Counted from the stretch's first letter, positions 1,417-56,026 are shown. The stretch: 64,000 bases of DNA from Patescibacteria group bacterium (GCA_038065275.1 JBBTRH010000013.1:32106-96105), one strand, 5' to 3'. Numbers and translations are program-made. Notes: a model not told the origin generated them from the sequence alone.

Positions 1417-2565
1417 CTACCGTAGCTCGTACGCCGGGGCGTATCCGGTCGCTGTTATTTGCGGTCGAATACGGTACATCGATTGGGTAATATCTACCAC
1501 CGCACACCCTGGGGCGGAAGATGAATTTTTCCGACTATTCAAGGTAATGTTGTTTTGGGTGTTGGCCTTGCAAACCGTACCGCTTCCATACGGACTAGTA
1601 CCGCCAAGAACATATTCGAAGTCACCGTTGCATCCGTCTGTATAATAGCTAGTACAATCATTAACTGCTCCGCTCGTGCATCGACTAATCGGATCGTACC
1701 CGTTTGGACAATAGGTTGCCGTTGATGCGGTATAGACGAGTACGCAGTCGACAAACGGCGCGGGTGATGAAGCCTTATCGAAACAGTACTTGGCAGTCGC
1801 AAGTTTTTGATCGTTAGTCCCAGCGCCTGAAACATCGACGGAGTAGAGATACTGCCCAAGACATTCATCCGAGTTCGCCTTACACACTTGGACTTGCCAG
1901 ATGCCCTTGCTCCGGTTACCCAAAACGATGGAATCGGTAACATTCACCTTCCCACTAAAATATCCCGCCCAGCCTGCCCCGGCTTGCTGGCCGTAGACAG
2001 CGGAGTTATCACCATTAGCATAAGCCGCAATGGCATCGCCGCTACTGCCGGTGCCGGCCAGATTATTGTTGACCACCAGCTTACCGGCCGGGGCAGTAAC
2101 GCCGCCGATCCCGATATTGCCGCCGTTCTTAGCCAGGATGAGGTTGCGCCAGGCAACGGACTCTTCGACCGCGCCGATCTCGGCGTAGGCGGGAGAGGCC
2201 TCGGAATGAATCCCAAGGTTGAGCTTCAGATTCTGGTTGGTGTAACCCTGGATAACCAGTTGGGTGGCGCGGTTACTGCCGCCATTGCTGTCGGCACGAA
2301 CGAACAGTGAGTTGCTGGTGCCGGGGCGAAGGACCAGGTCGCTACTGCCGGCAATATCCCGTCCGGCGTTGCCGATTTCCATGACGCTGTCTCCGGCCAG
2401 GCCCGGGACGATGGCAATCACCCCCTGGTAGACGCTGAGCTTGGCAAACGGTATGCCGCCGGGATTGGTGATCGGGCCGGCGGAGACTAAAGCAACCGAG
2501 CCGAGAAGGCCCAGCACAACTGACGCTGATATGGTTAGGTATTTTGACTGTCGTGATGTGTTCAC
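1417..2565 (-). CDS. secreted or membrane-anchored protein, paralog 1 (shared N-terminal module AGPIT..PFxKLxVYQGVIAxVP..VMEIGNAGRD, Cys-rich C-terminal domain)
   Basis: N-terminal hydrophobic anchor or signal peptide. The first ~90 residues are strongly conserved with ORF 2895..4334. About 16 Cys in the C-terminal 150 aa. GTG start. Confidence 0.6.
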   Translation of the reverse strand: MNTSRQSKYLTISASVVLGLLGSVALVSAGPITNPGGIPFAKLSVYQGVIAIVPGLAGDSVMEIGNAGRDIAGSSDLVLRPGTSNSLFVRADSNGGSNRATQLVIQGYTNQNLKLNLGIHSEASPAYAEIGAVEESVAWRNLILAKNGGNIGIGGVTAPAGKLVVNNNLAGTGSSGDAIAAYANGDNSAVYGQQAGAGWAGYFSGKVNVTDSIVLGNRSKGIWQVQVCKANSDECLGQYLYSVDVSGAGTNDQKLATAKYCFDKASSPAPFVDCVLVYTASTATYCPNGYDPISRCTSGAVNDCTSYYTDGCNGDFEYVLGGTSPYGSGTVCKANTQNNITLNSRKNSSSAPGCAVVDITQSMYRIRPQITATGYAPAYELR

Positions 2566-2597
2566 TATGACTACATCGTACCCGAAAACCAGGAAAT

Positions 2598-2706
2598 GTC
2601 AACCCCGTTAGAGGTGATGGTGGCTAGCAGAAAAAAACAGGCTTATCGAGTTCATCGGCTATACCGCGGTTAGCCCTATTTCGATTTCACCTCTAACGGG
2701 GTTGAC
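2598..2706. repeat. long inverted-repeat element, long variant (GTCAACCCCGTTAGAGGTGA ... TCACCTCTAACGGGGTTGAC; 20 bp arms, ~70 bp spacer)
   Basis: Perfect 20-nt inverted repeat read directly. Belongs to the CCCGTTAGA/TCTAACGGG family also seen at 11064, 34334, 36460, 50223 and 55503. Confidence 0.8.
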
Positions 2707-4714: not shown

Positions 4715-5086
4715 CTAGTGATGACCGATCGCTTGCTGGACCGCTTCCAGCGGCAGGGTAGCGCACCTCAGCCGCGCCGGATTGACTTCGACGCCGAGTA
4801 TGGCCAGGATATCGTCGTTGGTCAGCTTGGCGATTTCTGATCGGTTCAAGTTTTTCAACTTCTCGCTCAACATCGAGGCCGACGCCATCGTAATGGTGCA
4901 CCCGCGTCCAGTGAATTTTACATCGCTCACGTTGTCATCGGCGTCAAACACTAAATAAAAATCTAGCTCATCTCCGCATAGCGGGTTGGCCGCGTGGGCT
5001 TTAGCTTGAGCGTCAGGCAACTCCCCGAAATTACGAGGGTGTTTGTAGTGATCTAGTATATTTTGTTGGTACATTTCGAGACTCAT
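4715..5086 (-). CDS. sufU: Fe-S cluster assembly scaffold / sulfur acceptor SufU (NifU-like N-terminal domain)
   Basis: LDHYKHPRNFG, CGD, and GCTISMASASMLSE motifs typical of IscU/SufU. Adjacent to sufS. Confidence 0.85.
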   Translation of the reverse strand: MSLEMYQQNILDHYKHPRNFGELPDAQAKAHAANPLCGDELDFYLVFDADDNVSDVKFTGRGCTITMASASMLSEKLKNLNRSEIAKLTNDDILAILGVEVNPARLRCATLPLEAVQQAIGHH

Positions 5087-6408
5087 GCGAACACCTCTTG
5101 AATTTTTTTAATCCCTCGCACCAACGCGTCAATATCTTCCTTGGTGTTGTAAAGGTAGCATGACGCCCGCGCCGTGGCTACCAATCCGAACTTTTGGTGG
5201 AGCGGCATGGCGCAGTGGTGCCCGGCCCGGACAGCGACCCCCTGCTCGTCCAGGATCGAGCCGATGTCGTGGGGGTGAACCCCGTCAATCGTGAAAGCGA
5301 AGATAGCGCCTCTTCCCTTCCCCTGCTCCCCTTCGGCAAGCTCAGGGTCGCCGCCCCCTTTCGAATTCGGAAGGGGGCTGTCCGTAGGACTGGGGGAAGG
5401 GGTTAGAACCCCAAGCACAGCAACGCCAGGAATCTTTCCAAGCTGCTCCAGCCCATACCGCGTCAATTCCTGCTCATGTTTCCATACATTCTCCATCCCC
5501 AAGTTCGATAAGTAATCCACCGCCGCCCCTAACCCAATCGTTCCGGCAATATTCGGCGTGCCCGCTTCAAATTTCCACGGCAACTCGTTCCATGTCGCTT
5601 TCTCTTTCGTCACTTCCAGAATCATGTCTCCGCCGCGCTGATACGGTTCCATCTGTTCTAACAGTTCCTGCTTGGCGTAGAGCACGCCGATGCCGGTCGG
5701 CCCGAGCATTTTATGTCCGGAGAAAACCAGAAAATCAGCGTCGAGATCTTGGACATCAACCGGCATGTGCGGCACGGATTGCGCGGCATCAACGAGGATC
5801 TTCGCGCCGACCGCGTGCGCTTTGCGCGCCAGCGTTTTGACATCGTTCACGGTGCCCAACACATTCGACATCTGCGTCACCGCTACCAGTTTTACGCCTT
5901 TAAGCAAATCATCAATGTTTGAGAGGTCGAGTTGGCCGTCATCAGTGATGGGGATCCAGCGTATTAAGCCGGCCCCCTCCTCAGTCGAGGAGGGGCGAGG
6001 GGGTGGTGTTGCCAAACCTTGGGCAACCGCAAACCACGGCACAATGTTCGCGTGGTGTTCCATTTCGGACAACAGAATTATATCCCCCGACTTCAGCGTT
6101 TTCCCAAAGCTGTCTGCCACCAAGTTGATTGCTTCGGTCGTCCCGCGGACAAACACAATTTCTTTGGTGGACTTGGCGTTGATGAATTTGCGGATTTTCT
6201 CGCGTGCTCCTTCGTACGCATCCGTGGCTTTCACCGATAATTCGTAGACGCCGCGGTGGACGTTCACACCATATCGTTCGTAATATTCCCGCTCGGCGTC
6301 AATGACCTGTTTTGGTTTCAATGACGTCGCGGCCGAATCTAAATACACCAATTTCGGATGGTGACCGAAAATGGGGAAGTCTTTTTTCAAGTCGGCAATG
6401 TCAAACAT
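5083..6408 (-). CDS. sufS: cysteine desulfurase SufS (class V aminotransferase); ORF may extend to 6456
   Basis: HANIVPW, SGHKMLGPTGIGVLY and RAGHHCA motifs. Likely start is MFDIADLKKDFPIF at 6408. Contains Pro/Ser-rich low-complexity insertions. Confidence 0.88.
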   Translation of the reverse strand: MFDIADLKKDFPIFGHHPKLVYLDSAATSLKPKQVIDAEREYYERYGVNVHRGVYELSVKATDAYEGAREKIRKFINAKSTKEIVFVRGTTEAINLVADSFGKTLKSGDIILLSEMEHHANIVPWFAVAQGLATPPPRPSSTEEGAGLIRWIPITDDGQLDLSNIDDLLKGVKLVAVTQMSNVLGTVNDVKTLARKAHAVGAKILVDAAQSVPHMPVDVQDLDADFLVFSGHKMLGPTGIGVLYAKQELLEQMEPYQRGGDMILEVTKEKATWNELPWKFEAGTPNIAGTIGLGAAVDYLSNLGMENVWKHEQELTRYGLEQLGKIPGVAVLGVLTPSPSPTDSPLPNSKGGGDPELAEGEQGKGRGAIFAFTIDGVHPHDIGSILDEQGVAVRAGHHCAMPLHQKFGLVATARASCYLYNTKEDIDALVRGIKKIQEVFA

Positions 6409-11063: not shown

Positions 11064-11146
11064 ATCCCGTTAGAAACTACCTCTAATCGGCGTTGAATAC
11101 ATAGGGAAGAGATGTTGTGTCCCGCACTAGTTTCTAACGGGACATA
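11064..11146. repeat. long inverted-repeat element (ATCCCGTTAGAAACTAC ... TAGTTTCTAACGGGACAT) abutting the start codon
   Basis: Read directly. Same family as 34334, 36460 and 50223. Confidence 0.8.
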
Positions 11147-21519: not shown

Positions 21520-21802
21520 TCACTAATTTACACTAAACTATGACTTAGTTCGACGCTTTTTCTAACGCATCTCTAGCTCGAACGTTCTTTCTCCACACTA
21601 ATTGCCTAAACCGTTCTTCGGAACGGCATGGCATCACAATAACCCTGCAAGGTATAGAGCTCCTAGTCAGAGCATCCTTGCAGGGTCATGCGCCGAAAGG
21701 TGTATGGGTGGTCGTAAGGCCATCGCTGGCTAGGGGCTTTGTGTATATACGCACGATACACAAAAACCCTTCCATGATCACCTATCAGAAAGGGAATTCT
21801 CT

Positions 21803-22824: not shown

Positions 22825-23583
22825 TTATTTATTCTCCACGTTGTTCACCGCATCTCGATAGGCGCAATAATCACAATCCTCTCCAGCTGGCGGGATGGCT
22901 TTGCTATTTAAACAGGCATGGGCGTCAATAATGGCTTGCTCGACCCACGAATCATCGCCTTCGTAGGGTATGACCTTAATATCGAATTCCAGTTTCCCAT
23001 CGAATGCTTCGGCATCGCTATTACCATTGCAGTAAACGAAATATCCCGTATTAGAAACCTTGAACCCATTACGGCGAAATAGCCACTGGTAGACTTCCAT
23101 CTGCCGCTTGTACCCGATCTGCCAATCGGCATCAAGATTGACCTCGTCCTTCTTTGAGGTAGCCTTATAGTCGACGATGATCAGCTCTCCATTCGGACGA
23201 ACCCACAGGTCGTCTACTCCGCCAGTAATCTTGAAATTGGTATCGGCATGATGATATGTTACGCCCCGTCGTAACGAGTCCCGCCATTCATCGATTTTCT
23301 CATGTGCCAGCGGGATAGCATCGATCTTATACTTCTTTTGTAAAGGATGCTTTGTGCCCTTAGCGCGGTGGATATCAAATTCCCGCTTAAGAAGTTCATC
23401 AACGGCAGAATTGAGCGAAAACGGGTACCCTGGCGGTTGAGCTATCCCAAGTCGTCGATCTAAGTAGAAACATCGTGGACAGTTCAGGAAGAGGTCTATC
23501 TTTGAGCGACTGAGTCGAAACGGTTCGGTACTGGCCGGATCGTAGAGATTCTTGACTCTTTGTGGGGTGTAGTATTTGGACAC
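22825..23583 (-). CDS. Cas4/RecB-like PD-(D/E)xK nuclease with predicted 4Fe-4S cluster (no CRISPR locus nearby)
   Basis: N-terminal CPRC. Nuclease motifs GGVDDLWV (D) and IIVDYK (DxK). QMEVY (QxxxY). C-terminal C-x12-CDYC cysteine triad. Confidence 0.6.
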   Translation of the reverse strand: MSKYYTPQRVKNLYDPASTEPFRLSRSKIDLFLNCPRCFYLDRRLGIAQPPGYPFSLNSAVDELLKREFDIHRAKGTKHPLQKKYKIDAIPLAHEKIDEWRDSLRRGVTYHHADTNFKITGGVDDLWVRPNGELIIVDYKATSKKDEVNLDADWQIGYKRQMEVYQWLFRRNGFKVSNTGYFVYCNGNSDAEAFDGKLEFDIKVIPYEGDDSWVEQAIIDAHACLNSKAIPPAGEDCDYCAYRDAVNNVENK

Positions 23584-23662
23584 GTTCGTTAGATTTGCAT
23601 TATCGTTTCTGGTTCCATCGGTTATCTAAATTTCGCCTTCGAAGATGAGGATTTTGGGCATG

Positions 23663-23968
23663 TTATCGTTGCCACCACCGAATAAACTTTCCGATAAGCC
23701 AAACGAAGCCACCAAACACAGACAAACTAAAGCCCTCCGCATAACGCGCACTTTGAAAGCTTAGGTTTGTTTTGTCGGATCCCATAAAATACAATCCCGA
23801 GAAAGCAATTAATGCACCAATAATCATTACAATTTTCCCAAATTTGCTACTCGAAGTTGAAACAGAAGTCCGACCACGAAAGAATAAACTGATAATAAAA
23901 AATATCCCGCTAATAACTAGGCCTTGGAAAAAACTTTTATCAAAGAAATCCATACTATTCGCTTTCAA
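23663..23968 (-). CDS. small membrane protein (2-3 TM)
   Basis: 101 aa hydrophobic ORF downstream of hsdS. Overlaps the hsdS end by 14 nt. Confidence 0.35.
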   Translation of the reverse strand: MKANSMDFFDKSFFQGLVISGIFFIISLFFRGRTSVSTSSSKFGKIVMIIGALIAFSGLYFMGSDKTNLSFQSARYAEGFSLSVFGGFVWLIGKFIRWWQR

Positions 23969-25031
23969 ACTCCTCTCTCAAAATTCCCCGCTTCAACGCC
24001 GTAAAATCCGCCGCCTGCTTCGCCTGCAATTCCTGAAGTGCGCGGGATTTTTCGGAAAGCGCATCAAGCTTTTCAACAATCATTTTTTGTTCTACAAGGG
24101 AAGGAAGCGGAATATCCAATTTTGAATATTGTGAAATCCAATAACGTTTATGTGAAGAGTGATCTAGGTTAATAGTTTGCATCAAGTAAAACAAATACCT
24201 TGTATCTGCAACCTCCCTCTTGGCATGTAATATTTTCATTGCTGACGATTTTACCTTGAATGGAAAATCTACGTATTGGATTGCTGTAGTAAAGTCATCA
24301 AATATTATTACCGGCAGCTTTTCTTTTGGAAAGATATTTTCTGTTTCATTTGTGTTTCCTAAAATAAAAGTTTTGCCCGCGGTCAACACCGGCGTTTTAA
24401 ACGAATCAATGTAATTTTTGGAACGGACTATGTATTTGCCTGGTTGTTCATAATCTAAGGCATCCTCCAGTTTTATTTTCTGCCACCCCTTCTCTTCTCC
24501 CTCCTCAAACACCCCATGCAATGCCGCGGGCAACAGTTGCGCGGCAAGTCTCGCCGACTCCGCACGAAGTCGGGATGTTTCGTCAATTTTTGCAAATTGC
24601 TGTTCTATTTTCGCGACGATCTTCTTTTGTTCGACGAGGGGTGGGACTTTGACTTCCAAATTTGAATATTCTGAAATCCAGTAACGTTTATGGGTTGCAT
24701 GATTAACATGCAACGTCTGCAATAACAAATAGAAGTATTTAGGATCCGCAATGCCCTCTTTCGGGTGTAGAATCTTCATTGCCGAAGATTTTACCTTGAA
24801 TTGAAAGGTGACAAATTTAGTCGCGGTGGTGAAATCATCAAAGATAATTACTGGCAGCCTCTCGGAGGGAAATATATTGTCCTTTTCGGCAGTATTCCCT
24901 AAAACAAAAGTTTTTCCAGCCGTTAGCACAGGAGTTTGATAATCCTTATTGTAGTGCTTAGTTTTTACGATATACTTTGTAGGCTGCTCGTAATCTAGCA
25001 CTTCACCGAGTTTTTTTGTGGGGTAGGTCAT
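23955..25031 (-). CDS. hsdS: type I restriction-modification specificity subunit HsdS
   Basis: Two duplicated target-recognition halves (YEQPxKYIVxxKxY...VLTAGKTFxLGNT...LPVIIFDDFTTA repeated) separated by a coiled-coil spacer. Confidence 0.85.
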   Translation of the reverse strand: MTYPTKKLGEVLDYEQPTKYIVKTKHYNKDYQTPVLTAGKTFVLGNTAEKDNIFPSERLPVIIFDDFTTATKFVTFQFKVKSSAMKILHPKEGIADPKYFYLLLQTLHVNHATHKRYWISEYSNLEVKVPPLVEQKKIVAKIEQQFAKIDETSRLRAESARLAAQLLPAALHGVFEEGEEKGWQKIKLEDALDYEQPGKYIVRSKNYIDSFKTPVLTAGKTFILGNTNETENIFPKEKLPVIIFDDFTTAIQYVDFPFKVKSSAMKILHAKREVADTRYLFYLMQTINLDHSSHKRYWISQYSKLDIPLPSLVEQKMIVEKLDALSEKSRALQELQAKQAADFTALKRGILREEFESE

Positions 25032-25952
25032 TTATTCGTCGTCTTTTTGGTACTTGATACGATTTTCATTTTTTTTAATTAGGTGTAAACATGCCAACAA
25101 GGTCGCATAGTAAAAGTAAAACATCCAACTAAGCCAAACCGTCTTATCATAATTTGTTTTCTGTTGCTTATTGGCGTGACGAATTCCAAAGTTGTTAGCT
25201 ATATTAAATAGATCGCTTTCATCCTTTGAGTTAAGAACTTTTTCAATTTTTGGTTTTAAGTGCTCAAAACAATCAGCAAGAGCACGGATCGCATCCTCTC
25301 GGTCACTTATTGTTGAGCCATATTTTCTAAATTTGTTTGCCGCATGTTCCATTTTTTCCCTTACCGTTACGTCGCCTGTGGGGACCGGCGATTCAGAAAT
25401 ATTTCGTAAGTGGGATGGTAACAAAGTCAATATTTCACCTTTTGTACTTAGCTCAAAACCGTCTCCATAGTCGTTAAGGAATTGGTTTATCTCTTGAGCA
25501 AATTCAATGGGGCCTAATCCCAAATCATCAAAACGTGTATAGTGCCAACCACAACTATTCCAATTATGGTAAGTGGCGCCTTGTTCAAGGGGTAATGAAA
25601 TATGATCAAAAAAGAATTCGATAATATCGAACAAATCATCTTCGGAATATCCCTTATACTTCTCCGAAAACGGCCAAACATTTGCCCTCCGAAGCCTACG
25701 AAGTACATATCCTTCGATATTTGTTCCGACTTTCCCTGGAATATCCCCGTCTGTACAGTTAGTGCCAAGGAATTCCTGAAAGTACCCTCGCGTTGAAAAG
25801 TCTTGCCAAATACTAAAAACAATTTCTTTCAAAGAATCGAGAGAGATTTTTTGTGAGTGGTCTTTTCTTAAAGAATAGTATTTTCTTGCCACAATGGTGA
25901 TGCTATGGATTGCAATACTTTTTGTAGAGCTTACGGGTAGTAACCACAGCAC
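25032..25952 (-). CDS. uncharacterised protein nested in the type I R-M operon (candidate defence/Abi component; REKMEH resembles an HEPN Rx4H motif)
   Basis: 306 aa. Start abuts the hsdS start (25031/25032). No known domain recognised. Confidence 0.45.
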   Translation of the reverse strand: MLWLLPVSSTKSIAIHSITIVARKYYSLRKDHSQKISLDSLKEIVFSIWQDFSTRGYFQEFLGTNCTDGDIPGKVGTNIEGYVLRRLRRANVWPFSEKYKGYSEDDLFDIIEFFFDHISLPLEQGATYHNWNSCGWHYTRFDDLGLGPIEFAQEINQFLNDYGDGFELSTKGEILTLLPSHLRNISESPVPTGDVTVREKMEHAANKFRKYGSTISDREDAIRALADCFEHLKPKIEKVLNSKDESDLFNIANNFGIRHANKQQKTNYDKTVWLSWMFYFYYATLLACLHLIKKNENRIKYQKDDE

Positions 25953-26790
25953 TCTCCACTTTGAGACTTTTTAGATAATCTTCGCTTGGAATCTTATAGT
26001 CTTTGTGCACAAACTTATTTGCCTCCACTCTTATTTGTTCGATATCATCGCATACCTGTTCAAGAAGTTCTTTGTCCTCGTGAAAGTCTGTAGATTTTGA
26101 TCGTATATTTGACAGAAGTAATTCGAGTCCACGATAACGGCCTTTGTTTTTATCATACCAAATTTCATGATTACCTTGATTGTACGAGCCATTAACGATC
26201 TTCGGAAATACAATTTCGCAAATTCTAACCACCAACGCCTCTAACAATTTTCGACTAAGTATTATTACTGCGAGCAGCTGTCCATTTAAATAGGACTCAT
26301 TAATCTCTTTGCGAATATAATCAAGAAACAAATCATTAAAATCATATGGAAGGTAGTCCGGCCCAACAAAATCTTCTTCAATTTCTAGAACTGATAATTT
26401 TTTACTTGCATTATCGAAATTAACACCCGTTGCCCGAAGAAGGTTAACTATTAATTGATGCCAGTTTTTAATGTACTCGCCATAATAGTTCCATCCATCG
26501 TTTCGGGTACCGATTATTTTTGAGTCAAAAACAATTTCTTGAAGTATTGGGAGGTATTTGTATGAAGGAACCGTTTGCATGAAGTTAGCAAAATCATAAT
26601 TTGGTTCACTCATGAAGGAGTACAATGGAATACTATATGGCGATCCTCCTGCAGCTAGTTCTGAATACTTTCCACTGTTGTATTCTATCCCGAACTTCTT
26701 GAGAAAAATTTTAAAGTCTTCCGCACTATAGCAGTGTATGTATAATCGCTCAGCGTACACCCAGATCTCTTGGTTGAGTTTAAGACTCAT
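25903..26790 (-). CDS. uncharacterised protein nested in the type I R-M operon (candidate defence/Abi component; DUF4145/HEPN-like is possible)
   Basis: 295 aa. Start overlaps the hsdM stop (ATGA, 26787-26790). C-terminal helical region with RVEANKFVH. Confidence 0.45.
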   Translation of the reverse strand: MSLKLNQEIWVYAERLYIHCYSAEDFKIFLKKFGIEYNSGKYSELAAGGSPYSIPLYSFMSEPNYDFANFMQTVPSYKYLPILQEIVFDSKIIGTRNDGWNYYGEYIKNWHQLIVNLLRATGVNFDNASKKLSVLEIEEDFVGPDYLPYDFNDLFLDYIRKEINESYLNGQLLAVIILSRKLLEALVVRICEIVFPKIVNGSYNQGNHEIWYDKNKGRYRGLELLLSNIRSKSTDFHEDKELLEQVCDDIEQIRVEANKFVHKDYKIPSEDYLKSLKVESAVVTTRKLYKKYCNP

Positions 26791-28208: not shown

Positions 28209-28211
28209 AGA

Positions 28212-33127: not shown

Positions 33128-34333
33128 CTAGTAATCCCTCAACTTCTTCATGTGTTGATGCTGTTGGATTTTCTCCAGCGCTTTCGATTCGATCTGACGG
33201 ATCCGTTCGCGCGTCACCCCGAACTCCTGGCCGACTTCTTCCAGCGTGTGCGCCACGCCGTCGTTTAAGCCAAAACGCATTTCCAGAATTTTCTGTTCGC
33301 GCGGACTGAGCGACTCAATGATTCGGCGCACGTCGTCCCGCAACAGCTGGAGAGCCGCGACTTTGTCCGGCGACACCGTCTTGACGTCCTCGATGAAGTC
33401 GCCGAGCGTCGAGTCCTCGTCGTCTTCGCCGACTGAGGTTTCCAGCGAGACGGTGTCCTGGGAAATTTTCATGACGTGGCGTATTTTGTCGATCGGCTCG
33501 CCCATTTCGGCGGCGATTTCTTCCGGCAGCGGCTCCCGGCCGAGGTCTTGAATCAACTGCCGCTGGATTTGCTGAAATTTATTGATCGTCTCGACCATGT
33601 GGACCGGGATGCGGATGGTCCGCGACTGGTCAGCCAGGGCGCGGGTGATGGCCTGGCGGATCCACCAGGTGGCGTAAGTCGAGAACTTGTAGCCCTTGCG
33701 ATAGTCGAATTTTTCCACCGCCCGAAACAGGCCGATATTCCCTTCTTGAATTAAGTCCAGCAACGACAGCGAGCGGCCGGTGAACTTCTTGGCGATCGAG
33801 ACCACCAAACGCAAGTTGGCTTCCACCAGGCGCTTCGAGGCTTCAACGTCGCCCGCTTCTTTCCGCTTGGCCAGCGACACCTCGTCTCCGGCCGTCAGCA
33901 ACGGCACCTTGCCGATTTCCCGCAGGTACATTTGGATCGAATCATTGGAGATGTCGCCCAGGTCGAAATGGCGCTCGTCGAGCGGCAAATGCTTCTTGGA
34001 ATGGCTGGACTCGAGGAAAGCCGGCTTGATCGGCTCGAGGATACCGCCAGCGCTTTCGACGATCTGGATGCTGTGTTTTTCGAACTCATCGAGGGCCGCT
34101 TCGTACTGGTCGATGTAGGCTTCCAGGTCGGGGAAGGCGTACAGCAGTTCCGTCTCCGTCAGGAACCCGCGCTGGCGGCCTTTGCGGACCAGCTCACGAA
34201 CCGTATCCAGCGGAACGACGGGGACGGCGGCGCGTTTACCGCGCTTGTCCGCTTTCAATGTTTTAGCGCGCCGAACCGGCGGACGTCTCTTTATCGGCGC
34301 TCGCTTGACGCGCTTGGTGGTTTTCTTAGGCAT
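33128..34333 (-). CDS. rpoD: RNA polymerase sigma-70 factor RpoD (primary sigma)
   Basis: Regions 2-4 conserved ([40 protein letters not shown]). Downstream of dnaG. Confidence 0.93.
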
Positions 34334-34440
34334 CCCGTTAGAAGTAAAATAAATCAGGTTGACTAGCTATTCGCCAGTTGGTTTCATCCACCGTCCCATT
34401 ATTGGTACACCCAAGTTCAATTACTTCTAACGGGAGCATG
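34334..34440. repeat. long inverted-repeat element (CCCGTTAGAAGTAA ... TTACTTCTAACGGG) abutting the rpoD start codon
   Basis: 14-bp arms read directly. Flanked by CATG on both sides. Confidence 0.8.
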
Positions 34441-36459: not shown

Positions 36460-36543
36460 GCCACATTAGAAACTACCTAAATGAGAAGCTATTTGCATAT
36501 GTATCGATTACCTTCGCCCCCATAGGTTTCTAACGGGGCATGG
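36460..36543. repeat. long inverted-repeat element (CCACATTAGAAACTACCT ... AGGTTTCTAACGGGGCATGG) abutting the dnaG start codon
   Basis: Imperfect arms (CCACA vs CCCCG). Same family as the others. Confidence 0.7.
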
Positions 36544-39688: not shown

Positions 39689-39950
39689 GGCTCAAGCCTA
39701 CCACAACACTAAGAAAAAACGAACACCGGTCTCGGCCTAGAGAAAAGTGCTGCCCTCTCCTGCCCAGAGCGGAGGATGCGAGATTCCCCGTACCACTCCG
39801 CTACGCTCCGGGTGCGTGGCAGGCGAACTCCCGATACCTTGCCGTCTACTCCCCTTATTCGTCCGGCGCGGAGGGCGAGACCCCGCACTATGCGCTTCGC
39901 GCAAATGCGGAGCAAGGATTCGAACGAAGTTACTTCAGATTCGGGCCGGG

Positions 39951-40035
39951 CGGAGAGAGAGGGATTCGAACCCTCGAACCCTTGCGGGTTGCACGCTTTC
40001 CAAGCGTGTGCACTCGACCACTATGCGATCTCTCC
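39951..40035 (-). tRNA. tRNA-Ser (anticodon GGA), long variable arm
   Basis: Hand-folded: acceptor GGAGAGA/UCUCUCC, D-stem GCAU/GUGC, anticodon stem CACGC/GCGUG with loop UUGGAAA, long variable arm, T-arm GAGGG-UUCGAAU-CCCUC. Confidence 0.75.
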
Positions 40036-40871: not shown

Positions 40872-40992
40872 GTCAACCCAGCACCACCCAGCACCACTTT
40901 TGTCTAGTTTTAGCGTGCGTTAGGTATCTTGCTTTCTAAGTATAATGAGTTTTTCTGTGGCAAAAAGCAAGGAAAAGTGGTGCTGGGTTAAC
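40872..40992. repeat. MITE-like element copy 1 (TIR GTCAACCCAGCACCAC...GTGGTGCTGGGTTAAC; internal 10-nt duplication CCCAGCACCA)
   Basis: About 93% identical to copy 3 at 50404..50514. Right end fuses to a CCCCGTTAGAG half-site. Confidence 0.75.
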
Positions 40993-40996
40993 CCCG

Positions 40997-43009
40997 TTAG
41001 AGCCGTCGGTCAGCCGACCGGCTGAGTTGCCTTGCCCCTGCCAGGGGGCTGACTGCCCCGCCGGCGGCTCGCAGGTCAGTGACCGCGGCCGGCGGCGTGA
41101 CGTCGACGCTCAAGAGGAACAACGCGTCGGATGAGTTTGCCGTGACGCTGGTCGCCACGGAACCGTCATTCACCTCGGGCGCCGCCGTCCCCAGGATTTT
41201 TTGATAGGGTTTTTCCAGCGTCACCGTCTGCGGCGCGGCTGACGGATTGACCAGCACCGCGCCGTGATCGAAGTCGCGCCGGTAGACGTTAGTCAGCCCC
41301 GTTTGGAAATGCACGTCATCGAGCCAGACGGCGCCGGCCGCCGCCGCCAAGTCGAAGCGGACCGTGGCGTTGGCGTTTGCGGTTGACGGCGTCAGCGGCA
41401 GTTGATACTGTCGCCATGCGGTCGTGATCGGCAGGCTGACGGTGCCCGCTCCGCCGGTGTCAAGCACGAGGTCAATCGTCCGCGCCGCCGAGGCTTTAGC
41501 CCAGAACGTCAGGCCGTAGGTCAGCCCGGCGGTGACGGGAAAAGTGTCAGTCGCCGCGACCGAGGTGAAATTGTGGAACGAGCTGCTTTGACCGACGTCG
41601 GCGCGGAGACTGCGAGCGCCGACTGCTACGGTCGAATCATCAGTCGTGATCGTCGACTGGGTCGCGGGGGCCGTGACCGCCGTCCAGCCGGCCAGCCCGT
41701 TTTCGAATCCGTTATTCGCTGTTATCAAGTCGGCGGCCGGATTAAGCCAGACCATCTGGTAAGCCTCGGTCGTCGGTTGTCCGAGCCAACCGGTATCGCT
41801 CGCATTCGTGGTCGATCGGCCGGTCGCCAGGTTAACGGCGTATTCGTCATACCACCATTGATCGTACCGGAAGCCGTTGAGGCGCGGGTCCGTGACGCGA
41901 GCGCCGTTGCCGAAAAAACTGAATCCCGCTCCGAGTGAAGCGCTACCCAACCCAAAACGTTCCAGTCGGCGGTCGATCGCCGTGGTCCCGGTCGTGGAAG
42001 CGGCGTTCGATGAGATGAAGTTGTATTGCGGAGCTCGATAGCGGAGTTTGTCTTGAAAGTAGCCGCCGACTGGCCAGTACATGTTCGTGTACCAGGTCCC
42101 GCCCTCTTGTTGGGGGAAATACTCCTGCATCCAGCCGTTAAACGATCCATAGAGGCGGGGCGCGCCGGGAGTGCAGTTGCCGCTGATGATGAAATTCGGG
42201 TCGTCGATCAACGACCGGACTGTCTCTCCGAGAATGGTCTGCCCGTTGGTCCAGCCCTGAAAGAATTCCGCCGCCGAAACGTAACCGGCGCGGACGTAGT
42301 CAAATTTCTTGGTCGGCGTTTCGATCCACGGAATATCCGGGCAATAGACATCAAGAAACAGGCCGTCCCAGAGCCGCTGGCCAGCCGCATTGCGGGCATT
42401 GGCGACGGTGCCGGCCATCAGCTGGGCGATTGCCGCCGCCGTGGTGTAGGTGTATGAACCGTCCGGATTTTGAATCCGTTTAGCCAGATTGACGTTCACC
42501 AGATCGGCGTCGGTCGAGTGAATGCTCGGGTCGGCCGGCGGGTCGCTTTGGTAGTAGAGCCAACTGGCGTTCGGGCCGGGCGTCGGTCCCGCCCCGTCGT
42601 TGATCAACGTCCAGTACTGCTTGAACCAAGTGGATGAGTCGTAGTTGCCATACCAGATAAGGTGACCCAAAACATAGGCCAAGAGCTTGATCGCGGGGTT
42701 TCGTTGTCGCAATTGGCCGATCACGTCGGGGCGCAGATCAGTCAGCGGCGTGGCATCGATCGTCACCAACTGGTATTTCGCCGTTTGATCCAACGTTGAG
42801 GCGTTGAGCGTGCCGTCGTCGTTGAGTAGCGGCCAGCCCGAGGCCCGCACGCTGTCGTAGAGCCCCAGCCGCGGATAATTCAACTCTCCGCCCGCCGACA
42901 CCGGACCGGCCTGGACAATCGGGGTTTGGTGTGTACCGCTGATCAGCCACGCCGCCAACCCAAGCAAGCCAGTGATGATTACAATCGGGACGCGCAGTTT
43001 TATCGACAT
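40997..43009 (-). CDS. secreted putative glycoside hydrolase-like protein with C-terminal carbohydrate-binding-like domain
   Basis: Signal/TM at the N-terminus. Trp/Tyr/Gly/Asn-rich composition typical of TIM-barrel GH-like enzymes. C-terminal NGFENGLAGWT block resembles CBM4/9. No catalytic motif assigned. Confidence 0.4.
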   Translation of the reverse strand: MSIKLRVPIVIITGLLGLAAWLISGTHQTPIVQAGPVSAGGELNYPRLGLYDSVRASGWPLLNDDGTLNASTLDQTAKYQLVTIDATPLTDLRPDVIGQLRQRNPAIKLLAYVLGHLIWYGNYDSSTWFKQYWTLINDGAGPTPGPNASWLYYQSDPPADPSIHSTDADLVNVNLAKRIQNPDGSYTYTTAAAIAQLMAGTVANARNAAGQRLWDGLFLDVYCPDIPWIETPTKKFDYVRAGYVSAAEFFQGWTNGQTILGETVRSLIDDPNFIISGNCTPGAPRLYGSFNGWMQEYFPQQEGGTWYTNMYWPVGGYFQDKLRYRAPQYNFISSNAASTTGTTAIDRRLERFGLGSASLGAGFSFFGNGARVTDPRLNGFRYDQWWYDEYAVNLATGRSTTNASDTGWLGQPTTEAYQMVWLNPAADLITANNGFENGLAGWTAVTAPATQSTITTDDSTVAVGARSLRADVGQSSSFHNFTSVAATDTFPVTAGLTYGLTFWAKASAARTIDLVLDTGGAGTVSLPITTAWRQYQLPLTPSTANANATVRFDLAAAAGAVWLDDVHFQTGLTNVYRRDFDHGAVLVNPSAAPQTVTLEKPYQKILGTAAPEVNDGSVATSVTANSSDALFLLSVDVTPPAAVTDLRAAGGAVSPLAGARQLSRSADRRL

Positions 43010-46780: not shown

Positions 46781-47377
46781 TTAGTGTTTCGATTGACGAA
46801 TCAGGGTGATGATCAAGACCGTACTGACCGCCGCCAGCGCGGCCAGGACCGTCGTCAGGACGGTCTCGACGATGATCAGCAGGCCGTTGGTGATGGTCGG
46901 GTTAAGGATATACTTGCTGACCGAGGCGGCCAAGCCCAGGCCAATGCCAGCAAAGACGCCAGTGGTCAAGCTCTCGACTTTTCCGCCGTCCCGCCGCGCC
47001 ACCAGCCAAGCCAGGCCGATGACCGCTAGCGCTTCGACGGCGACGATCAACTCGCGGCGCTGTTGGGCAAGGACCAGCAGAGCGACGAGTAACATGGCGC
47101 CGATCATCCAGCGGCGAATCAGCCCGACATACCGATCGACGCTCCATTTTCCGATCATCGCCCGGGTCGGCGGTAACGTCTGGGTATCGGTCATGGCCGC
47201 AGTATAACATCTTTTCGGCTCAATTTCAACGCGTAGCCCAGCACCACTTTGGCTCCAATAATGTCTTATACCATATTCATGTTTTATGAAAAAACAGCAA
47301 TACCGTATATCTCCGTGAATCGACCAAAGTGGTGCTGGGTTGACAACGCCGGTAACCGGCGATAGAGTCAGCCACAA
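46781..47377 (-). CDS. integral membrane protein of unknown function
   Basis: 198 aa with about 5 hydrophobic helices. Confidence 0.45.
   Translation of the reverse strand: MWLTLSPVTGVVNPAPLWSIHGDIRYCCFFIKHEYGIRHYWSQSGAGLRVEIEPKRCYTAAMTDTQTLPPTRAMIGKWSVDRYVGLIRRWMIGAMLLVALLVLAQQRRELIVAVEALAVIGLAWLVARRDGGKVESLTTGVFAGIGLGLAASVSKYILNPTITNGLLIIVETVLTTVLAALAAVSTVLIITLIRQSKH
47227..47345. repeat. MITE-like element copy 2 (shares only the ~20-bp termini CCCAGCACCACTTTGG...CCAAAGTGGTGCTGGGTTGAC with copies 1 and 3; unrelated AT-rich interior)
   Basis: Termini read directly. Left end has a 5-nt insertion (TCAAC-GCGTA-GCCCAGCACCAC). Confidence 0.6.
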
Positions 47378-47409
47378 CGTTGCTCGTCGACAACTTCGGA
47401 GGGTTCATA

Positions 47410-47934
47410 ATGGCTAAGACCACGTTTGACGCCTATGGCAATGACCCGTGTATGCCGCTCATTACCACCCAGCAACTGGCGGAAGTCTTCTGCCGATCGT
47501 TCGCGCGGTCGGACACGGAAGCCGTCGAGCGGATGATCGACCGCGAATTGACGCATGACCACCGGTACATCCTCGGGCGCGTCGATGAACGACTCGCCGG
47601 TTTCGTCAGCTGGCGTCGCTGGGGGGAAGACCGGCACCGGTTAGCCGAGCTTTTCCATATCGGCGTCGACCTTGCCAACCCGGAGGCATCGGGGCTTGGA
47701 CGCCAGTTGATCGGCGCGATGGAAGAAGACGTCCATGCCTACTTTCGTCTTCACGGTCAGCTCGGAGGGCGGAAGATCTTCATCCTGACCCACGCCGACA
47801 ACTATCGCGCCCATAACCTCTACCGCCGGTGCGGGTACCGGCACCAGGCCACGCTGCCGGCATTCTTCCACTCCCGCATCGACGCGGTCAGTACCGGCGA
47901 GGAGTATTACTTCGCCCGGGATTTCCCCGGGTAA
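47410..47934 (+). CDS. GNAT-family N-acetyltransferase (probable)
   Basis: Acetyl-CoA-binding-like segment HIGVDLANPEASGLGRQLIGAMEE and C-terminal NLYRRCGYR. Likely start is MAKTTF at 47410 rather than 47380. Confidence 0.5.
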   Translation: MAKTTFDAYGNDPCMPLITTQQLAEVFCRSFARSDTEAVERMIDRELTHDHRYILGRVDERLAGFVSWRRWGEDRHRLAELFHIGVDLANPEASGLGRQLIGAMEEDVHAYFRLHGQLGGRKIFILTHADNYRAHNLYRRCGYRHQATLPAFFHSRIDAVSTGEEYYFARDFPG

Positions 47935-50222: not shown

Positions 50223-50304
50223 ATCCCGTTAGAGACTTAGTTCAATAAGATGTTGTGCCCCATCAGGTTACCCTTTGACGAAGGGGTCTCTAACGGGACA
50301 TGGG
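50223..50304. repeat. long inverted-repeat element (TCCCGTTAGAGAC ... GTCTCTAACGGGA) abutting the groES start codon
   Basis: 13-bp arms read directly. Lies in the groES leader between the CIRCE operator and the ATG. Confidence 0.8.
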
Positions 50305-50373: not shown

Positions 50374-50400
50374 TTAGCAGTCTACAGGATAGAGTGCTAA
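50374..50400. promoter_or_regulatory. CIRCE operator (HrcA binding site) TTAGCAGTC-N9-GAGTGCTAA
   Basis: One mismatch to the TTAGCACTC-N9-GAGTGCTAA consensus. About 150 nt upstream of the groES ATG. Abuts MITE copy 3, whose terminus gives a TTGACA on the groES-sense strand. Confidence 0.7.
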
Positions 50401-50403: not shown

Positions 50404-50514
50404 GTCAACCCAGCACCACTTTTGTCTAGTTTTAGCGTGCGCTAGGTATCTTGCTTTCTGAGTTTAATGAGTTTTTCTGCGGCAATAAGCGAGGAAAAGT
50501 GGTGCTGGGTCAAC
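50404..50514. repeat. MITE-like element copy 3 (TIR GTCAACCCAGCACCACTTTTG...GGAAAAGTGGTGCTGGGTCAAC)
   Basis: About 93% identical to copy 1. Internal hairpin CTTGCTTT...AAAGCAAG and a TATAAT hexamer. Confidence 0.75.
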
Positions 50515-52963: not shown

Positions 52964-54559
52964 TCAACGCAAATCCAATAATATAAATGGTGGTAATTTT
53001 ACCAGCCTCTTCCCTGCCGTATTCAACGGCGCGTTTTTTTCTTCCGTCGTCGTCAGCACCAACGGCGTCGGCGGCGGGGTTCCCGATGCATACTCAGCGC
53101 TATGCGTGTCGAGGCGCAGGATATAGAAGTAACCGGCCGGTTGTTTCTTCAACTTCGTCCCAATCAGCGACAGTTCGTTCGCTTTTTCCTGAGCGACACG
53201 ATTTGCAATGGTTTTGAGCGGCAATGCCGCCGGCAGGGCGCGAATATATCGGCCGGTCCAAGTTAGAGCAACGATTCCCATTACTCCCCCGCTCAACCCC
53301 AATATCCATTGCCGTCGGCTACAGCGCCGGCGGGCCAGCAGGGCGGCGGCGATGGCCGTCGCGACGGTCGCCGCCACCCCGAATAATATTTGCCCGGGGA
53401 TCGTCTGCCAAAACACCCGCCTCAGGCCGCGCCCCACCGGAATATGGGCCAGGACATTGCGCACAGTCGTGTCCGTCAGCAGATGACCGAACATGGCGGC
53501 GATACTAACCAGGCCCAGCGCTTGCATCCACCGCGGTTGACGCTCGGACCACCACGCCGCGGCGCCCCTGGCCAGAAGCATCGCCGCGGCCGGGTAGAGC
53601 GGCAGGATATACCACTCGCGGCGGGTTTGGATCAGGCTGAAAATAATCAGGGTAACCGCAAACCACAACAGGAGCAACCGGTCTAGACCGTTTTTTTCCG
53701 GCCCCGCCCGTCGTCCCGCTAAGACCATCGCCAACGGCAGAAAGAAACTGAACGGCCAGAACCGGTCACGGATGATGCCGAGGTACCAATGCCACGGCGT
53801 CGCGGTGAACAACGATTCAGTGGTGCGTTCGATCACGCTCAATCCGAGGTAACTGTCCCAAAATGAGCGGCCAAATCGCACCGTTTCAATAATGTGCCAC
53901 GGCGCGGCCAGCGCCACGAATGCAGCCGCGGCCCAAGCGATGTTTCCCCACCCGATCCGCCGCCAGCCGCGGCTGACGAGAATATCGATCCCGACAATGA
54001 TCAGCGGCAGGAGCCCGACTAACGACTTGGTCATCACCGCCGCGGCGCCGGCCGCGCCCCAAACGATGATCCATCGTGGCGTGGCTAAACTGCGCCAGTA
54101 TCCGTACATGGCCAGGACAATCAAGAATGTCAGCAAGCCGTCTAAATCCCCGCTTCGGAAGGCGTGGATTAGCGCGAATCGTCCCAACACAAACAGCCCG
54201 CCGGCCAGCCAGGCGACCGAACGTTTCTGCGTCGCCTGCCAGCCCCAGAGCGCCAGTAACACGGCCGTTCCCGCCCCGGCCAGCGCCGACCACAGCCGCA
54301 TCGCCAACTCCGTCGGTCCGAAGACGCCGATCAGCGGGTACGTCAACCAGAACTGTAGCGGCGGTTTCTCCAAGAAATCTTTGCCGAAGTAGGTCAGCTT
54401 GGTCCAGTCGTGCGACCGGAATAACTCGAGGTTCACATTCGCGTAAATCCCTTCATCCCAGTTCGTCAGCGGGACGCTATTCAGCCGCCAACCGAATATC
54501 ACGAGCGCCAAGGCGAGCACCGGAATCCAGACTGATCGCGGCCAAAACGTTGACATCAC
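52964..54559 (-). CDS. GT39/GT83-family glycosyltransferase (ArnT / PMT-like, dolichyl-phosphate-mannose-type membrane transferase)
   Basis: Multi-TM protein with N-terminal WDEGIYA (DE motif loop) and PPLQFWLTYPL. 531 aa. Confidence 0.6.
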   Translation of the reverse strand: MMSTFWPRSVWIPVLALALVIFGWRLNSVPLTNWDEGIYANVNLELFRSHDWTKLTYFGKDFLEKPPLQFWLTYPLIGVFGPTELAMRLWSALAGAGTAVLLALWGWQATQKRSVAWLAGGLFVLGRFALIHAFRSGDLDGLLTFLIVLAMYGYWRSLATPRWIIVWGAAGAAAVMTKSLVGLLPLIIVGIDILVSRGWRRIGWGNIAWAAAAFVALAAPWHIIETVRFGRSFWDSYLGLSVIERTTESLFTATPWHWYLGIIRDRFWPFSFFLPLAMVLAGRRAGPEKNGLDRLLLLWFAVTLIIFSLIQTRREWYILPLYPAAAMLLARGAAAWWSERQPRWMQALGLVSIAAMFGHLLTDTTVRNVLAHIPVGRGLRRVFWQTIPGQILFGVAATVATAIAAALLARRRCSRRQWILGLSGGVMGIVALTWTGRYIRALPAALPLKTIANRVAQEKANELSLIGTKLKKQPAGYFYILRLDTHSAEYASGTPPPTPLVLTTTEEKNAPLNTAGKRLVKLPPFILLDLR

Positions 54560-55707
54560 TCGGCTAAACCAAGTTCAACTAAACGGCGCCGGAACCGCTC
54601 ATTATATTCCTGGCGCCGATCCAGCTCATGAAATTTCAGCACGTCTTCCGAGATAACGACTTCCGTGGTACCGAGTTTTGCTTTGCTCTCAATGTTCTTC
54701 TCCATCTTCTTCAACTGCCGGTCACGCGCCCATGATTCAAGCCAGTGTCCAATTGGCGATGCCAAGAAAATTTCGTAAAACTGCTTGATGACGCGCAGTC
54801 CCGGGTTCGGTACCAGGAGTCTCGTCGGCCATTTCCAGACCCAAGCGTTTGGCAGAAGCTTCATCACCCAGTCGTTCGCTTGGCGGTATCGCTCGTAGGT
54901 ACCGTCATCGAGCAACGGCACCGCTTGCGCCGTCCAGAAGGTGAAGTGGATGTCCGGATCCGCACTTTTCAACGCCGAAAAATCCATGCCGTCAGTCGTG
55001 ACATAAAAACTCAAGCACACGCGGCCGGCGATGGTCGTTCCGTGCCGTCGATAGCCGAGCAGTGACACGATGCCGGTGACGATCATCCGCGCGATCCAGA
55101 TGTGGCGCGGGGCGGTGACGATCAGGAGATCGATGTCGCTGGCTGGCCGGGCGTTATCGATAGCCAGCGTGTTCACCACCGCGATCATCTTGACGAACGG
55201 GACTAGTTCAAGGAACCGCGCGGTCGAGGCGGCGCGGCGCCAAAGTTTGGCGTTGGCCGGCATCCGTTCGATTCTGGTATCGACGATCGACTGCCGCCCC
55301 GGGCAGAATACGTAGGCGCCGCGCCGCTCGAGTTTCCCCTCTTTGGCCAGCATCTCAACTTCGCGCTGGACGTCAGCGACGGTGACCGCGCTCAAGTTCG
55401 AGTTCGGGGGAGGATACAACCACCGCCACGCCTCCTCGACCGTCAACGGATAATCAAATGTGTCGTAGTAAACCAGCGCGCGGATGATTGAGGCTTGAAG
55501 AATTGACCCCGTTAGAGGCGAGCGTGGCTTACCAGCCCAGCCAGTATAATCTAGGATGCTGGGAAAATCAGCAGATCTTTCAGTGTCAGTATTCGCCTCT
55601 AACGGGGTTGACGTACGGTACATAATATGATAGGGTCGGGGCGCATAATTCCCGGCATCCCAGTGACTGGGGACTGAGGAAGTATAGCACCCCCGCTCTT
55701 TACCCAT
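54556..55707 (-). CDS. nucleotidyltransferase-fold-like hypothetical protein (true start probably near 55470-55500; the 5' part of the ORF overlaps a repeat element)
   Basis: [15 protein letters not shown] resembles an NTase hG[GS]x9-13Dh[DE]h motif. The N-terminal ~65 codons of the ORF are low-complexity and span the inverted repeat 55503..55612. Confidence 0.4.
55503..55612. repeat. long inverted-repeat element, long variant (TTGACCCCGTTAGAGGCGA ... TCGCCTCTAACGGGGTTGAC)
   Basis: 19/20-bp arms read directly. Loop contains TATAAT. The right-arm TTGAC could serve as a -35 for csrA. Confidence 0.8.
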
Positions 55708-55741: not shown

Positions 55742-56026
55742 ATGTTAGTCCTGACTCGTAAGCTCGGCGAGATTATCCGCGTCGGGGATGCGGTGAAAAT
55801 CACGATCCTCGAAATAAGATCCGGGCAGGTTAAGTTGGGCATTGAGGCTCCGCCCGAGATAAAAGTACATCGGGAGGAGGTCTACGCTCGTATTCAGGAG
55901 AACCGCCGCGCCGGGCGAAAATCCAGCGCCGGACCGGATCAGCCGTCTACCGCTCGACCTGACGACACGACTCGCGGCCCCCTGTTCCTCCGCCTGATCA
56001 AGGGCCGCAAGACTAAGCCCGCCTAA
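55742..56026 (+). CDS. csrA: carbon storage regulator CsrA (long C-terminal tail variant)
   Basis: [48 protein letters not shown] is the canonical CsrA core. Confidence 0.9.

Follow-up and report, generated by a model that had tools for sequence, protein, structure and literature searches.

Hairpin repeats at native -35 boxes of a Patescibacteria genome: probable miniature transposable elements

Does an inverted repeat whose ends read TTGAC bring a promoter to the genes beside it, or has it landed in a promoter that was already there? The question is raised by two repeats in a 64-kb stretch of a Patescibacteria group bacterium genome (JBBTRH010000013.1, 32106-96105), which was analysed at its whole length and is called the window hereafter. 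Copy 1 (2598-2706) lies just upstream of the gene 1417..2565, and copy 2 (55503-55612) lies at the start of the gene 54556..55623, which is divergent from csrA. A first-pass annotation took the terminal TTGAC for a -35 box carried outward by a long variant of the repeat. Our results suggest, with good confidence, that both repeats are non-autonomous elements resembling MITEs (miniature transposable elements with inverted repeats) and that they inserted into native -35 boxes.

Anatomy of the two repeats and their empty counterparts

The arms of copy 1 are perfect over 20 nt (2598-2617, GTCAACCCCGTTAGAGGTGA, and 2687-2706; 100% complementary, 69 nt spacing), and their complementarity runs on imperfectly to 29 nt (2589-2617 and 2687-2715, 90%). 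In copy 2 the perfect arms measure 16 nt (55506-55521 and 55593-55608, 71 nt spacing) and the left end reads aTTGACCCCG, not GTCAACCCC, which opens only the reverse complement of the right arm. The description of both copies as having 20-bp arms and a common terminus is thus exact for copy 1 and imprecise for copy 2, where the flanking hexamers are direct repeats (ATTGAC at 55502-55507 and GTTGAC at 55607-55612). Nor is there a separate long variant of the repeat: the 20 bp of copy 1 consist of a usual arm of 14 bp and a target hexamer, the extra length arising because flanks of the type R-T-N-N-A-Y are themselves quasi-palindromic. With one mismatch or none, CCCCGTTAGAGG occurs five times in the window against 0.21 expected. 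Folded as RNA, both copies give long hairpins on either strand (-46 to -52 kcal/mol, z -5.8 to -8.2), those of copy 1 reaching -52.3 and -49.8 kcal/mol (z -8.2 and -7.2); the two strands behave alike, with the outer stem driving the pairing. The earlier observation on the two inverted repeats is therefore partly confirmed.

At copy 1, the promoter scan recovers the proposed TTGACA-16-TACGAT on the minus strand (2602, score 10/12), although the gap to the GTG is 9 nt and not about 7. The choice of GTG 2565 as start codon is supported by the homolog P0122, which starts MNTSRRSKYVTISASV...; the N-terminus MNTSRRSKY... falls at this GTG. NCBI (AAB402_03505) starts the gene at GTG 2517 (366 aa), probably 16 codons too short since the conserved N-terminus of P0122 begins at GTG 2565; no database record of the exact protein was found. 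In L126, a syntenic and element-free locus, the corresponding region reads ...CTAAG GTTGACT-16-TATACT-9 nt-GTG AAC ACG, and its counterpart in the window reads [..CTAACGGG] GTTGACA-16-TACGAT-9 nt-GTG AAC ACA. The near-leaderless geometry of 9 nt is thus conserved, which supports the predicted leaderless-type promoter of this gene.

At copy 2, the TTGACG-N17-TAGGGT directed toward csrA is present in the sequence, with the csrA ATG (55742) some 106 nt after the -10. The promoter scan did not call it, its -10 matching only 3/6. Nevertheless, GTTGAC-N17-TA(G/A)NNT is kept in all five orthologous loci, empty or filled: L122, L123, L124 and L125 have GTTGACA-N17-TAGTTT/TAATTT at this position (GTTGACA-17-TAGTTT in both L122 and L125). 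The csrA -35 is also the reverse complement of the ATG TCA AC of the divergent gene, and the TAGNNT type of -10 recurs at other promoters of the window genome. The csrA 5' untranslated region, about 100 nt long (55640-55741, plus strand), is likewise conserved in L122-L125, for example GTATAGCACCC...CCCCGACYGGGGTTCAAGAAAG, with a hairpin and GGA-type motifs; judging from the sequence, it may serve as an autoregulatory leader.

As had been noted, the longest open reading frame (ORF), 54556..55707, does include copy 2. The conclusion drawn from it, that the true start of the gene is downstream or non-canonical, is contradicted by the orthologs, which place the ancestral ATG at 55623, upstream of the element; NCBI also annotates a 355-aa product (P0001) from 55623. 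The core of copy 2 plus 6 nt amounts to 105 nt, an in-frame insertion of 35 codons after codon 5. Deleting it yields a protein of 320 aa whose residue 5 aligns to residue 7 of the 326-aa ortholog in L002 (E = 8e-73), with GCTTGAAGAATTGACGTACGGTACAT as the reconstructed empty junction. Most of the 120 homologs are 315-325 aa long and start with MST or MSS about nine residues before the conserved stretch, while longer ones bear translated arms (for example NPVRS...LLTGS and STQHHF...SQSGAGS); P0002, P0004 and P0007 contain such arms. The orthologous loci are syntenic (uvrA-csrA-gene-PMT) and include empty, family A-filled and family B-filled sites (Table 1). GTCAAC/GTCAAN is duplicated at every filled site, and the interiors of the two A-filled sites, in the window and in L123, are unrelated. 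The insertion in L124 is in frame (36 codons) and that in L123 is out of frame. The empty site of L122 (1501-1525, GTCAACCCTGTTAGC) resembles a family A arm (GTCAACCCCGTTAGAG; 14/16 by eye). The protein encoded there does not exceed its homologs in length, so this is probably a coincidence and not a footprint.

Four orthologous sites have been seen both empty and filled: the N-terminus of gene 54556, the promoter of gene 1417..2565, the -35 of groES-groEL and the groES start codon. For the last two, the comparison is with L002, from a Kerfeldbacteria metagenome-assembled genome (MAG) that is 71-78% identical in nucleotides to the window in groEL and uvrA. Its groES-groEL promoter, gcTTGACA-17-TACAAT-CIRCE, has no element, whereas the window has TTGACA-18-TAGACT with TTAGCACTC-N9-GACTGCTAA, and its groES start codon is empty where the window has the 50224 element. 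The CIRCE-like HrcA operator (TTAGCACTC-N9-GACTGCTAA; about 50374-50400 on the minus strand of the window and about 2170-2200 in L002) overlaps the groES-groEL -10 and is conserved in this relative.

Together, these comparisons make it very probable that both proposed promoters are real, as their -35, -10 and spacing are kept in orthologs (L126 for one, L122-L125 for the other). They also show that the terminal TTGAC is not brought by the element: element-free orthologs (L126, L002, L122 and L125) have the same -35, spacer and -10, so this -35 would be native host sequence. The earlier interpretation of promoters and gene starts is, overall, partly supported.

An element family and its target sites

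The window (54% G+C) contains five family A elements (starting at 2598, 11065, 34333, 50224 and 55503), three family B elements (40872, 47237 and 50404) and two solitary arms, that is, eight elements and two remnants per 64 kb. Family A arms read CCCGTTAGA and family B arms C-CCAGCACCAC, and the flank rule is the same for both. The arms, terminal inverted repeats of the kind that MITEs have, are perfect over 13-20 nt, while the interiors are mutually unrelated and cannot be aligned, except that 40886 resembles 50408. A third arm family (GCGGCGCGGCG) was considered for two GC-rich inverted repeats, one inside gene 54556..55623 (55229-55327) and one inside the uvrC coding sequence (62310-62408), and was rejected as both fail the flank rule. 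At the 34333 element, a duplicated upstream ATG (about 34440, minus strand) begins a short ORF that crosses the element and ends with a TAA in its arm, 4 nt before the rpoD ATG (TAACGGGATG); from the sequence, this looks like a termination-reinitiation arrangement.

Table 1. Features of the window and orthologous sites of copy 2 (site sequences are gene-forward).
Feature	Position or locus	Strand	Description
Gene 1417..2565	1417..2565	-	probable secreted protein; signal-peptide-like N-terminus, no Pfam match
Predicted promoter of gene 1417..2565	2602..2575	-	-35 TTGACA (2602..2597), 16-nt spacer, -10 TACGAT (2580..2575), 9 nt to GTG 2565
Copy 1 left flank	2598..2603		GTCAAC, fits R-T-N-N-A-Y; target-type, not conserved element sequence; inverted partner of 2701-2706
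Copy 1 core	2604..2700		family A, 97 nt, CCCGTTAGAGGTGA...TCACCTCTAACGGG; with flank hexamers forms the perfect 20-bp arms
Copy 1 right flank	2701..2706		GTTGAC
Family A short form	11065..11142		T-CCCGTTAGA; 4-bp flanks CATA / CATA
Family A element	34333..34435		between dnaG and rpoD, adjoins rpoD ATG
Solitary family A right arm	36529..36537	+	TCTAACGGG; remnant
Family B element	40872..40992		GTCAAC / CCAGCACCAC...GTGGTGCTGG / GTTAAC; outward minus-strand flank TTGACA-17-TAGGGT
Promoter-like outward flank	40876	-	TTGACA-17-TAGGGT
Solitary family A left arm	40993..41001	+	CCCGTTAGA; hexamer GTTAAC common with the B element to its left
Family B element	47237..47344		right flank GTTGAC (47339-47344) = -35 of TTGACA-17-TAGAGT, GNAT gene promoter
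Promoter-like outward flank	47340	+	TTGACA-17-TAGAGT; 11 nt to TTG start of GNAT gene 47380..47934
Family A short form	50224..50298		at groES start codon, ATG duplicated (CATG / TATG); L002 is the empty site
Family B element	50404..50514		direct flanks GTCAAC / GTCAAC; minus strand adjoins groES-groEL promoter -35
Promoter-like outward flank	50408	-	TTGACA-18-TAGACT; groES-groEL
Conserved hypothetical gene	54556..55623	-	355 aa with insertion, 320 aa without; start ATG 55623
Copy 2 left flank	55502..55507		ATTGAC; minus strand GTCAAT = codons S-I of gene 54556..55623
Copy 2 core	55508..55606		family A, 99 nt, CCCGTTAGAGGCGA...TCGCCTCTAACGGG
Copy 2 right flank	55607..55612		GTTGAC = native -35 of csrA promoter; minus strand = codons 4-5 (ACG TCA AC) of divergent gene
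Predicted csrA-directed promoter	55608..55636	+	TTGACG (55608-55613), N17, TAGGGT (55631-55636)
csrA	55742..56026	+	
Empty site	L122		ATG TCAAC CCTG...
Empty site	L125		ATG TCAAC TCTC...
A-filled site	window		ACGTCAAC[CCCG...CGGG]GTCAAT
A-filled site	L123		ATGTCAAC[CCCG...CGGG]GTCAAA
B-filled site	L124		ATGTCAAC[CCAG...CTGG]GTCAAG

The arm core is not restricted to this genome. A scan of one genome per species with the pattern CCCGTTAGAR-N52-82-YTCTAACGGG found the arm pair in at least 119 loci of other genomes. Among the matches listed, about 67 belong to the Candidate Phyla Radiation (CPR)/Patescibacteria, from some 20 candidate classes, and others to Desulfobacterota/'delta' (15), Planctomycetota (13), Nitrospirota (4), Omnitrophota (3), KSB1, a few 'Gammaproteobacteria' and unclassified bins. 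Mis-binning does not explain this spread over phyla, as the matches include a deltaproteobacterial contig of 1.24 Mb. The element can be written Y-CCCGTTAGAR...YTCTAACGGG-R, and its interior, 4 to about 110 nt long and too short for a transposase gene, has no conserved sequence; the conserved terminal inverted repeat is Y-CCCGTTAGA-R plus about two further bases. Cores span 72-102 nt in the pattern scan, a range set by its gap limits, and other arm pairs in the loci span about 35-130 nt; among the matches listed, lengths are bimodal, at 76-78 and 99-100 nt. Over 135 elements, the arms reach on average 2.3 nt past the forced 10-nt core, against about 0.3 by chance.

For the elements of these matches, both flanks fit R-T-N-N-A-Y, and so do those of a 35-nt family B mini-hairpin in a Jorgensenbacteria MAG (aTTTAc / gTTTAc). 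The hexamer itself varies among copies and genomes (GTTTAC, GTGAAC, ATGAAT and others). Compared in direct orientation, the central two bases agree in 81 of 132 elements; compared in inverted orientation, they agree in 14 of 132, which is about chance; position by position, direct identity over the hexamer is 73, 105, 86, 91, 98 and 60 of 132. Since the flanks are mostly direct and positions -1/+1 of the elements are nearly always complementary (Y/R), these counts point to a 4-bp TNNA duplication at an R/TNNA/Y target; a 6-bp duplication is equally allowed.

The sites hit in this way are often expression signals. The window has 211 TTGAC sites, 16 of them with TANNNT at 16-18 nt (background probability 0.027), and five of the six outward TTGAC flanks of elements are followed by TANNNT at this distance. 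In other genomes, among the matches listed, a -10-like hexamer occurs at 8/11 TTGA flanks versus 13/243 other flanks. Of 35 flanks that start with ATG, 31 lead into an ORF of 80 codons or more, versus 20% of controls. Element-free promoters of the window also read GTTGACA (31536, 33125, 40311 and 50547), and thus the organism's -35 is itself a perfect R/TNNA/Y target. Several promoters (31536 and 47340 on the plus strand, about 47230 and 2602 on the minus strand) have their -10 only 6-11 nt before the start codon and no Shine-Dalgarno sequence. Leaderless or near-leaderless mRNAs may accordingly be common in this CPR genome, and its -10 consensus looks like TAGNNT.

These observations suggest how the elements could have come to lie at both loci. 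An enzyme would insert them at R/TNNA/Y with a 4-bp duplication, the elements being mobilised in trans, presumably by a DDE/DDD-type transposase. In this Kerfeldbacteria-like CPR genome the preferred target would be G/TTGA/C, the -35 hexamer of sigma-70-type promoters, and the duplication would leave an intact GTTGAC beside the original spacer and -10, so that the promoter survives with a hairpin just upstream. At start codons (A/TGNN/Y) the ATG would be duplicated, the proximal copy still opening the gene. Copy 1 would have hit the -35 of gene 1417..2565 in its near-leaderless promoter. Copy 2 would have entered a GTCAAC that serves gene 54556..55623 as codons 2-3 (here 4-5) and, read on the other strand, csrA as its -35. 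Enzyme specificity, the survival of only harmless insertions, or both could account for the enrichment of elements at -35 boxes and start codons.

Weighing the evidence for insertion

Several points weigh against an origin of the repeats by MITE-like insertion. The account is weakest at the main locus, since the flank hexamers of copy 1 are inverted (GTCAAC...GTTGAC), not direct, and copy 1 consequently has no simple target-site duplication. Direct GTTGAC/GTTGAC flanks could pair in the hairpin through two G.T wobbles, and two transitions in the distal copy would then produce the perfect GTCAAC...GTTGAC; alternatively, recombination between two elements may have brought the inverted flanks together. 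On either account, the proximal hexamer of copy 1 reads clearly as the native -35. Interiors show no similarity among copies, even inside one genome, which is unusual for a burst of bacterial MITEs, although the plant Stowaway and Tourist superfamilies are likewise defined by arms and target only. The elements were ascertained by requiring intact arms, which inflates their apparent conservation. All the genomes compared are MAGs, and the only other contigs of the strain (L120 and L121) both carry copy 2, so that no strain polymorphism was found there. The case for promoter activity is one of sequence conservation. Lastly, neither an autonomous partner nor a transposase with matching ends was found in the 64-kb window, in 119 loci of 8 kb or in viral contigs, so that mobilisation is presumed.

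The search for such an enzyme took several forms. Clustering of 910 ORFs of the loci gave no protein family recurring near the elements (within 4 kb): the largest cluster covers 6 of the 119 loci, with only housekeeping genes among the top clusters. Pfam searches of 40 window ORFs returned restriction-modification systems but no transposase or recombinase, and a search of the loci for long arm pairs (400-4000 bp, matching flanks) retrieved only pairs of separate small elements. A 3.1-kb unit in L010 was tried as an autonomous element and rejected, as it encodes an Ig-like/lipase protein and not a transposase. In this locus (MAG DX4.bin27), inverted repeats of 324 nt (2046-2369 and 4832-5155, 89-95% complementary), each containing a family A element, enclose the gene of a 686-aa Ig-like/lipase-like surface protein, and the segment could be invertible or recombining. 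Viruses were considered as a vehicle: arm pairs occur in nine stretches of seven viral contigs, one of the nine being a conserved phage locus off the flank rule, and little was learned from them. That locus, of 91 nt, is conserved in related IMG/VR viral contigs (L128, L129, L130, L132 and L133), with arms CCCGTTAGAACG...CGTTCTAACGGG and flanks AAAAGA / TTATTC, off the R-T-N-N-A-Y rule.

The reading in which the element brings its own outward -35 (TTGAC), creating new promoters wherever a -10-like hexamer lies near, accounts for the TTGAC that directly adjoins the arms in most long A and B copies and for the -10-like hexamer at five of six flanks, and it has precedents in Correia elements and several insertion sequences (IS) that supply promoter parts (PMC3184786). 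However, the element-free L126, L002, L122 and L125 already hold the start distance together with the whole promoter, the hexamer varies between copies and genomes and is a direct and not an inverted repeat, and at copy 2 it belongs to the conserved N-terminal codons of the gene. We regard this reading as largely refuted by these sequence comparisons and give it only a slim chance. Hardly better placed is the idea that the hairpins are modules selected by the host (transcriptional insulators or stabilisers of the upstream gene's 3' end that stand just before the next promoter, or mRNA hairpins that loop out between ribosome-binding site and start codon) rather than selfish DNA. Their stems are very stable (-46 to -52 kcal/mol) and reach further past the conserved core than chance would give (2.3 versus 0.3 nt), they adjoin the -35 at about half of the window's consensus TTGAC promoters, and they are dense for a streamlined CPR genome. 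Nevertheless, no U-tract follows the stems and no terminator-like site was found in the scanned regions around copies 1 and 2; orthologous promoters are conserved without any element, insertions also occur within coding sequence, presence and absence are erratic in close relatives, and the interiors share no conserved motif. We therefore consider a host function of this kind unlikely.

Identity with a known recombination system is very improbable. The arm GTTAGAR / YTCTAAC resembles the attC core GTTRRRY / RYYYAAC, hairpins of about 75-110 nt would fit attC sites or REPINs, and attC interiors are variable too. Yet the motifs stand in the opposite order (GTT... leads here, while attC has RYYYAAC, R'', at the 5' end and GTTRRRY, R', at the 3' end), the stems pair perfectly and lack extrahelical bases, and the elements are dispersed singly and not in cassette arrays beside intI. 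As for repetitive extragenic palindromic (REP) sequences or REPIN doublets with a RAYT, a REP is a short palindrome in its own right with a conserved 5' tetranucleotide; the arms here are not palindromic in themselves, and the searches of the window and the loci turned up no Y1 transposase. Neither integrase, RAYT nor invertase occurs in the window or recurs in the loci, which also argues against invertible-promoter switches, and none of these systems makes the target duplication that is present here.

Two further identities were rejected. The elements are not an RNA family: Rfam gave no match for them over the whole window at the gathering score and, on the locus at E <=10, only a spurious plant miRNA (12 bits), while the two strands fold equally and the outer stem drives the fold. 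The interiors have tRNA-sized loops, but only one of 147 scores as a tRNA, and a derivation from tRNAs was set aside. In that one, from L036 (4972-5125, a Saccharibacteria MAG), a complete tRNA-Thr(CGT) at 4981-5052 exactly fills the space between family A arms, and a second, partial tRNA-like copy with the same end (GCGGCTCTAACGGGG) comes after it; being one of 147, it is an oddity. Literature searches by arm sequence returned only unrelated primers, and the literature searched holds no account of this family or of CPR MITEs.

Relation to known elements and significance

MITEs are recognised by terminal inverted repeats, a duplicated target, small size, stable folding and sites that are filled in some genomes and empty in others (PMC3184786). 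The bacterial ones (Correia/CREE of Neisseria, Nezha, ERIC and RUP) are, like the elements described here, about 75-130 bp long, without transposase coding and present in many copies mostly at gene boundaries; they also share inverted repeats, flanking direct repeats, a very stable hairpin and empty and filled sites. In contrast, a single 10-nt arm core spans several phyla here and not just one genus, with no known parent IS and with interiors unrelated between copies. Correia and ERIC duplicate TA and have other arm sequences, while the elements here duplicate TNNA. The Correia element also donates a promoter, whereas here the -35 is the host's. The hybrid promoters generated by IS likewise have TTGAC at the element junction beside a -10, but there the IS end donates the -35, which here pre-exists and would be rebuilt by the target duplication.

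Rickettsia palindromic elements are palindromic, of about 100-150 bp, and in a reduced genome lie in frame in protein genes as extra peptides (PMC10969869). Copy 2 (35 codons) and the L124 insertion (36 codons) are in frame in the same manner. Nevertheless, the Rickettsia elements are confined to that genus and share no sequence similarity with those described here, most of which are intergenic, and the L123 insertion is out of frame. A likeness to piggyBac concerns the ends and the target. The piggyBac terminal inverted repeat CCCTAGAAAG... resembles CCCGTTAGAAAG; this resemblance is short, and is a lead only. piggyBac duplicates TTAA, for which TCAA, TAAA and TATG have been reported as variants, and its prokaryotic outgroup is IS1380 (PMC10813416). 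Ends that begin with CCC and a 4-bp T-N-N-A duplication are common to both, but no DDD transposase was found here. More speculative, and doubtful on present evidence, is a hairpin-transposon superfamily that crosses phyla, in which R/TNNA/Y targeting, duplication and a perfect stem would together make insertions functionally 'invisible' in streamlined genomes and whose transposase, possibly related to IS1380/piggyBac, would specifically recognise -35-like DNA. On that view the duplication would regenerate the -35 box or start codon, and looping-out of the hairpin in the RNA might bring ribosome-binding site and ATG back to their proper spacing; within coding sequence, ribosomal bypass could even occur between duplicated take-off and landing codons (TCA...TCA, in copy 2 and L123).

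Other features of the window stand apart from the elements. A LOOT RNA lies at 21603-21724 on the plus strand (Rfam RF03000; 80.9 bits, gathering score 46.4); the family occurs in CPR phyla and would fit a CPR origin, as does the NCBI annotation of the window's proteins (AAB402_) as those of a 'Patescibacteria group bacterium'. The tRNA-Ser(GGA) gene (39948-40036) is enclosed by a 22-nt inverted repeat, 91% complementary (39937-40050, minus strand), which adds about 9 bp to the acceptor stem (GGGCCGGGC) and may form a precursor processing helix. The regions 22825-30569 and 36644-39688 encode type I restriction-modification (hsdS, hsdM and hsdR), a type ISP enzyme and a PD-(D/E)XK nuclease, which is much defence for so small a genome.

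CPR/Patescibacteria genomes, of about 1 Mb, are thought to be poor in mobile DNA, yet the elements are frequent in this window. They mislead gene callers, as exemplified by the longest-ORF start at 55707, which is too far upstream, and by the NCBI start of gene 1417..2565, which is probably too short. They would also mark real promoters, from which a predicted consensus GTTGACA-N17-TAGNNT, often near-leaderless, can be proposed for uncultured organisms. What is notable is the spread of the arm core across phyla, which takes in about 20 CPR classes and no fewer than five further phyla, together with a preference for, or survivorship at, sites whose function the duplication restores. Insertion that rebuilds the signal it interrupts, whether a -35 box or a start codon, would account for the persistence of selfish DNA in highly compact genomes.

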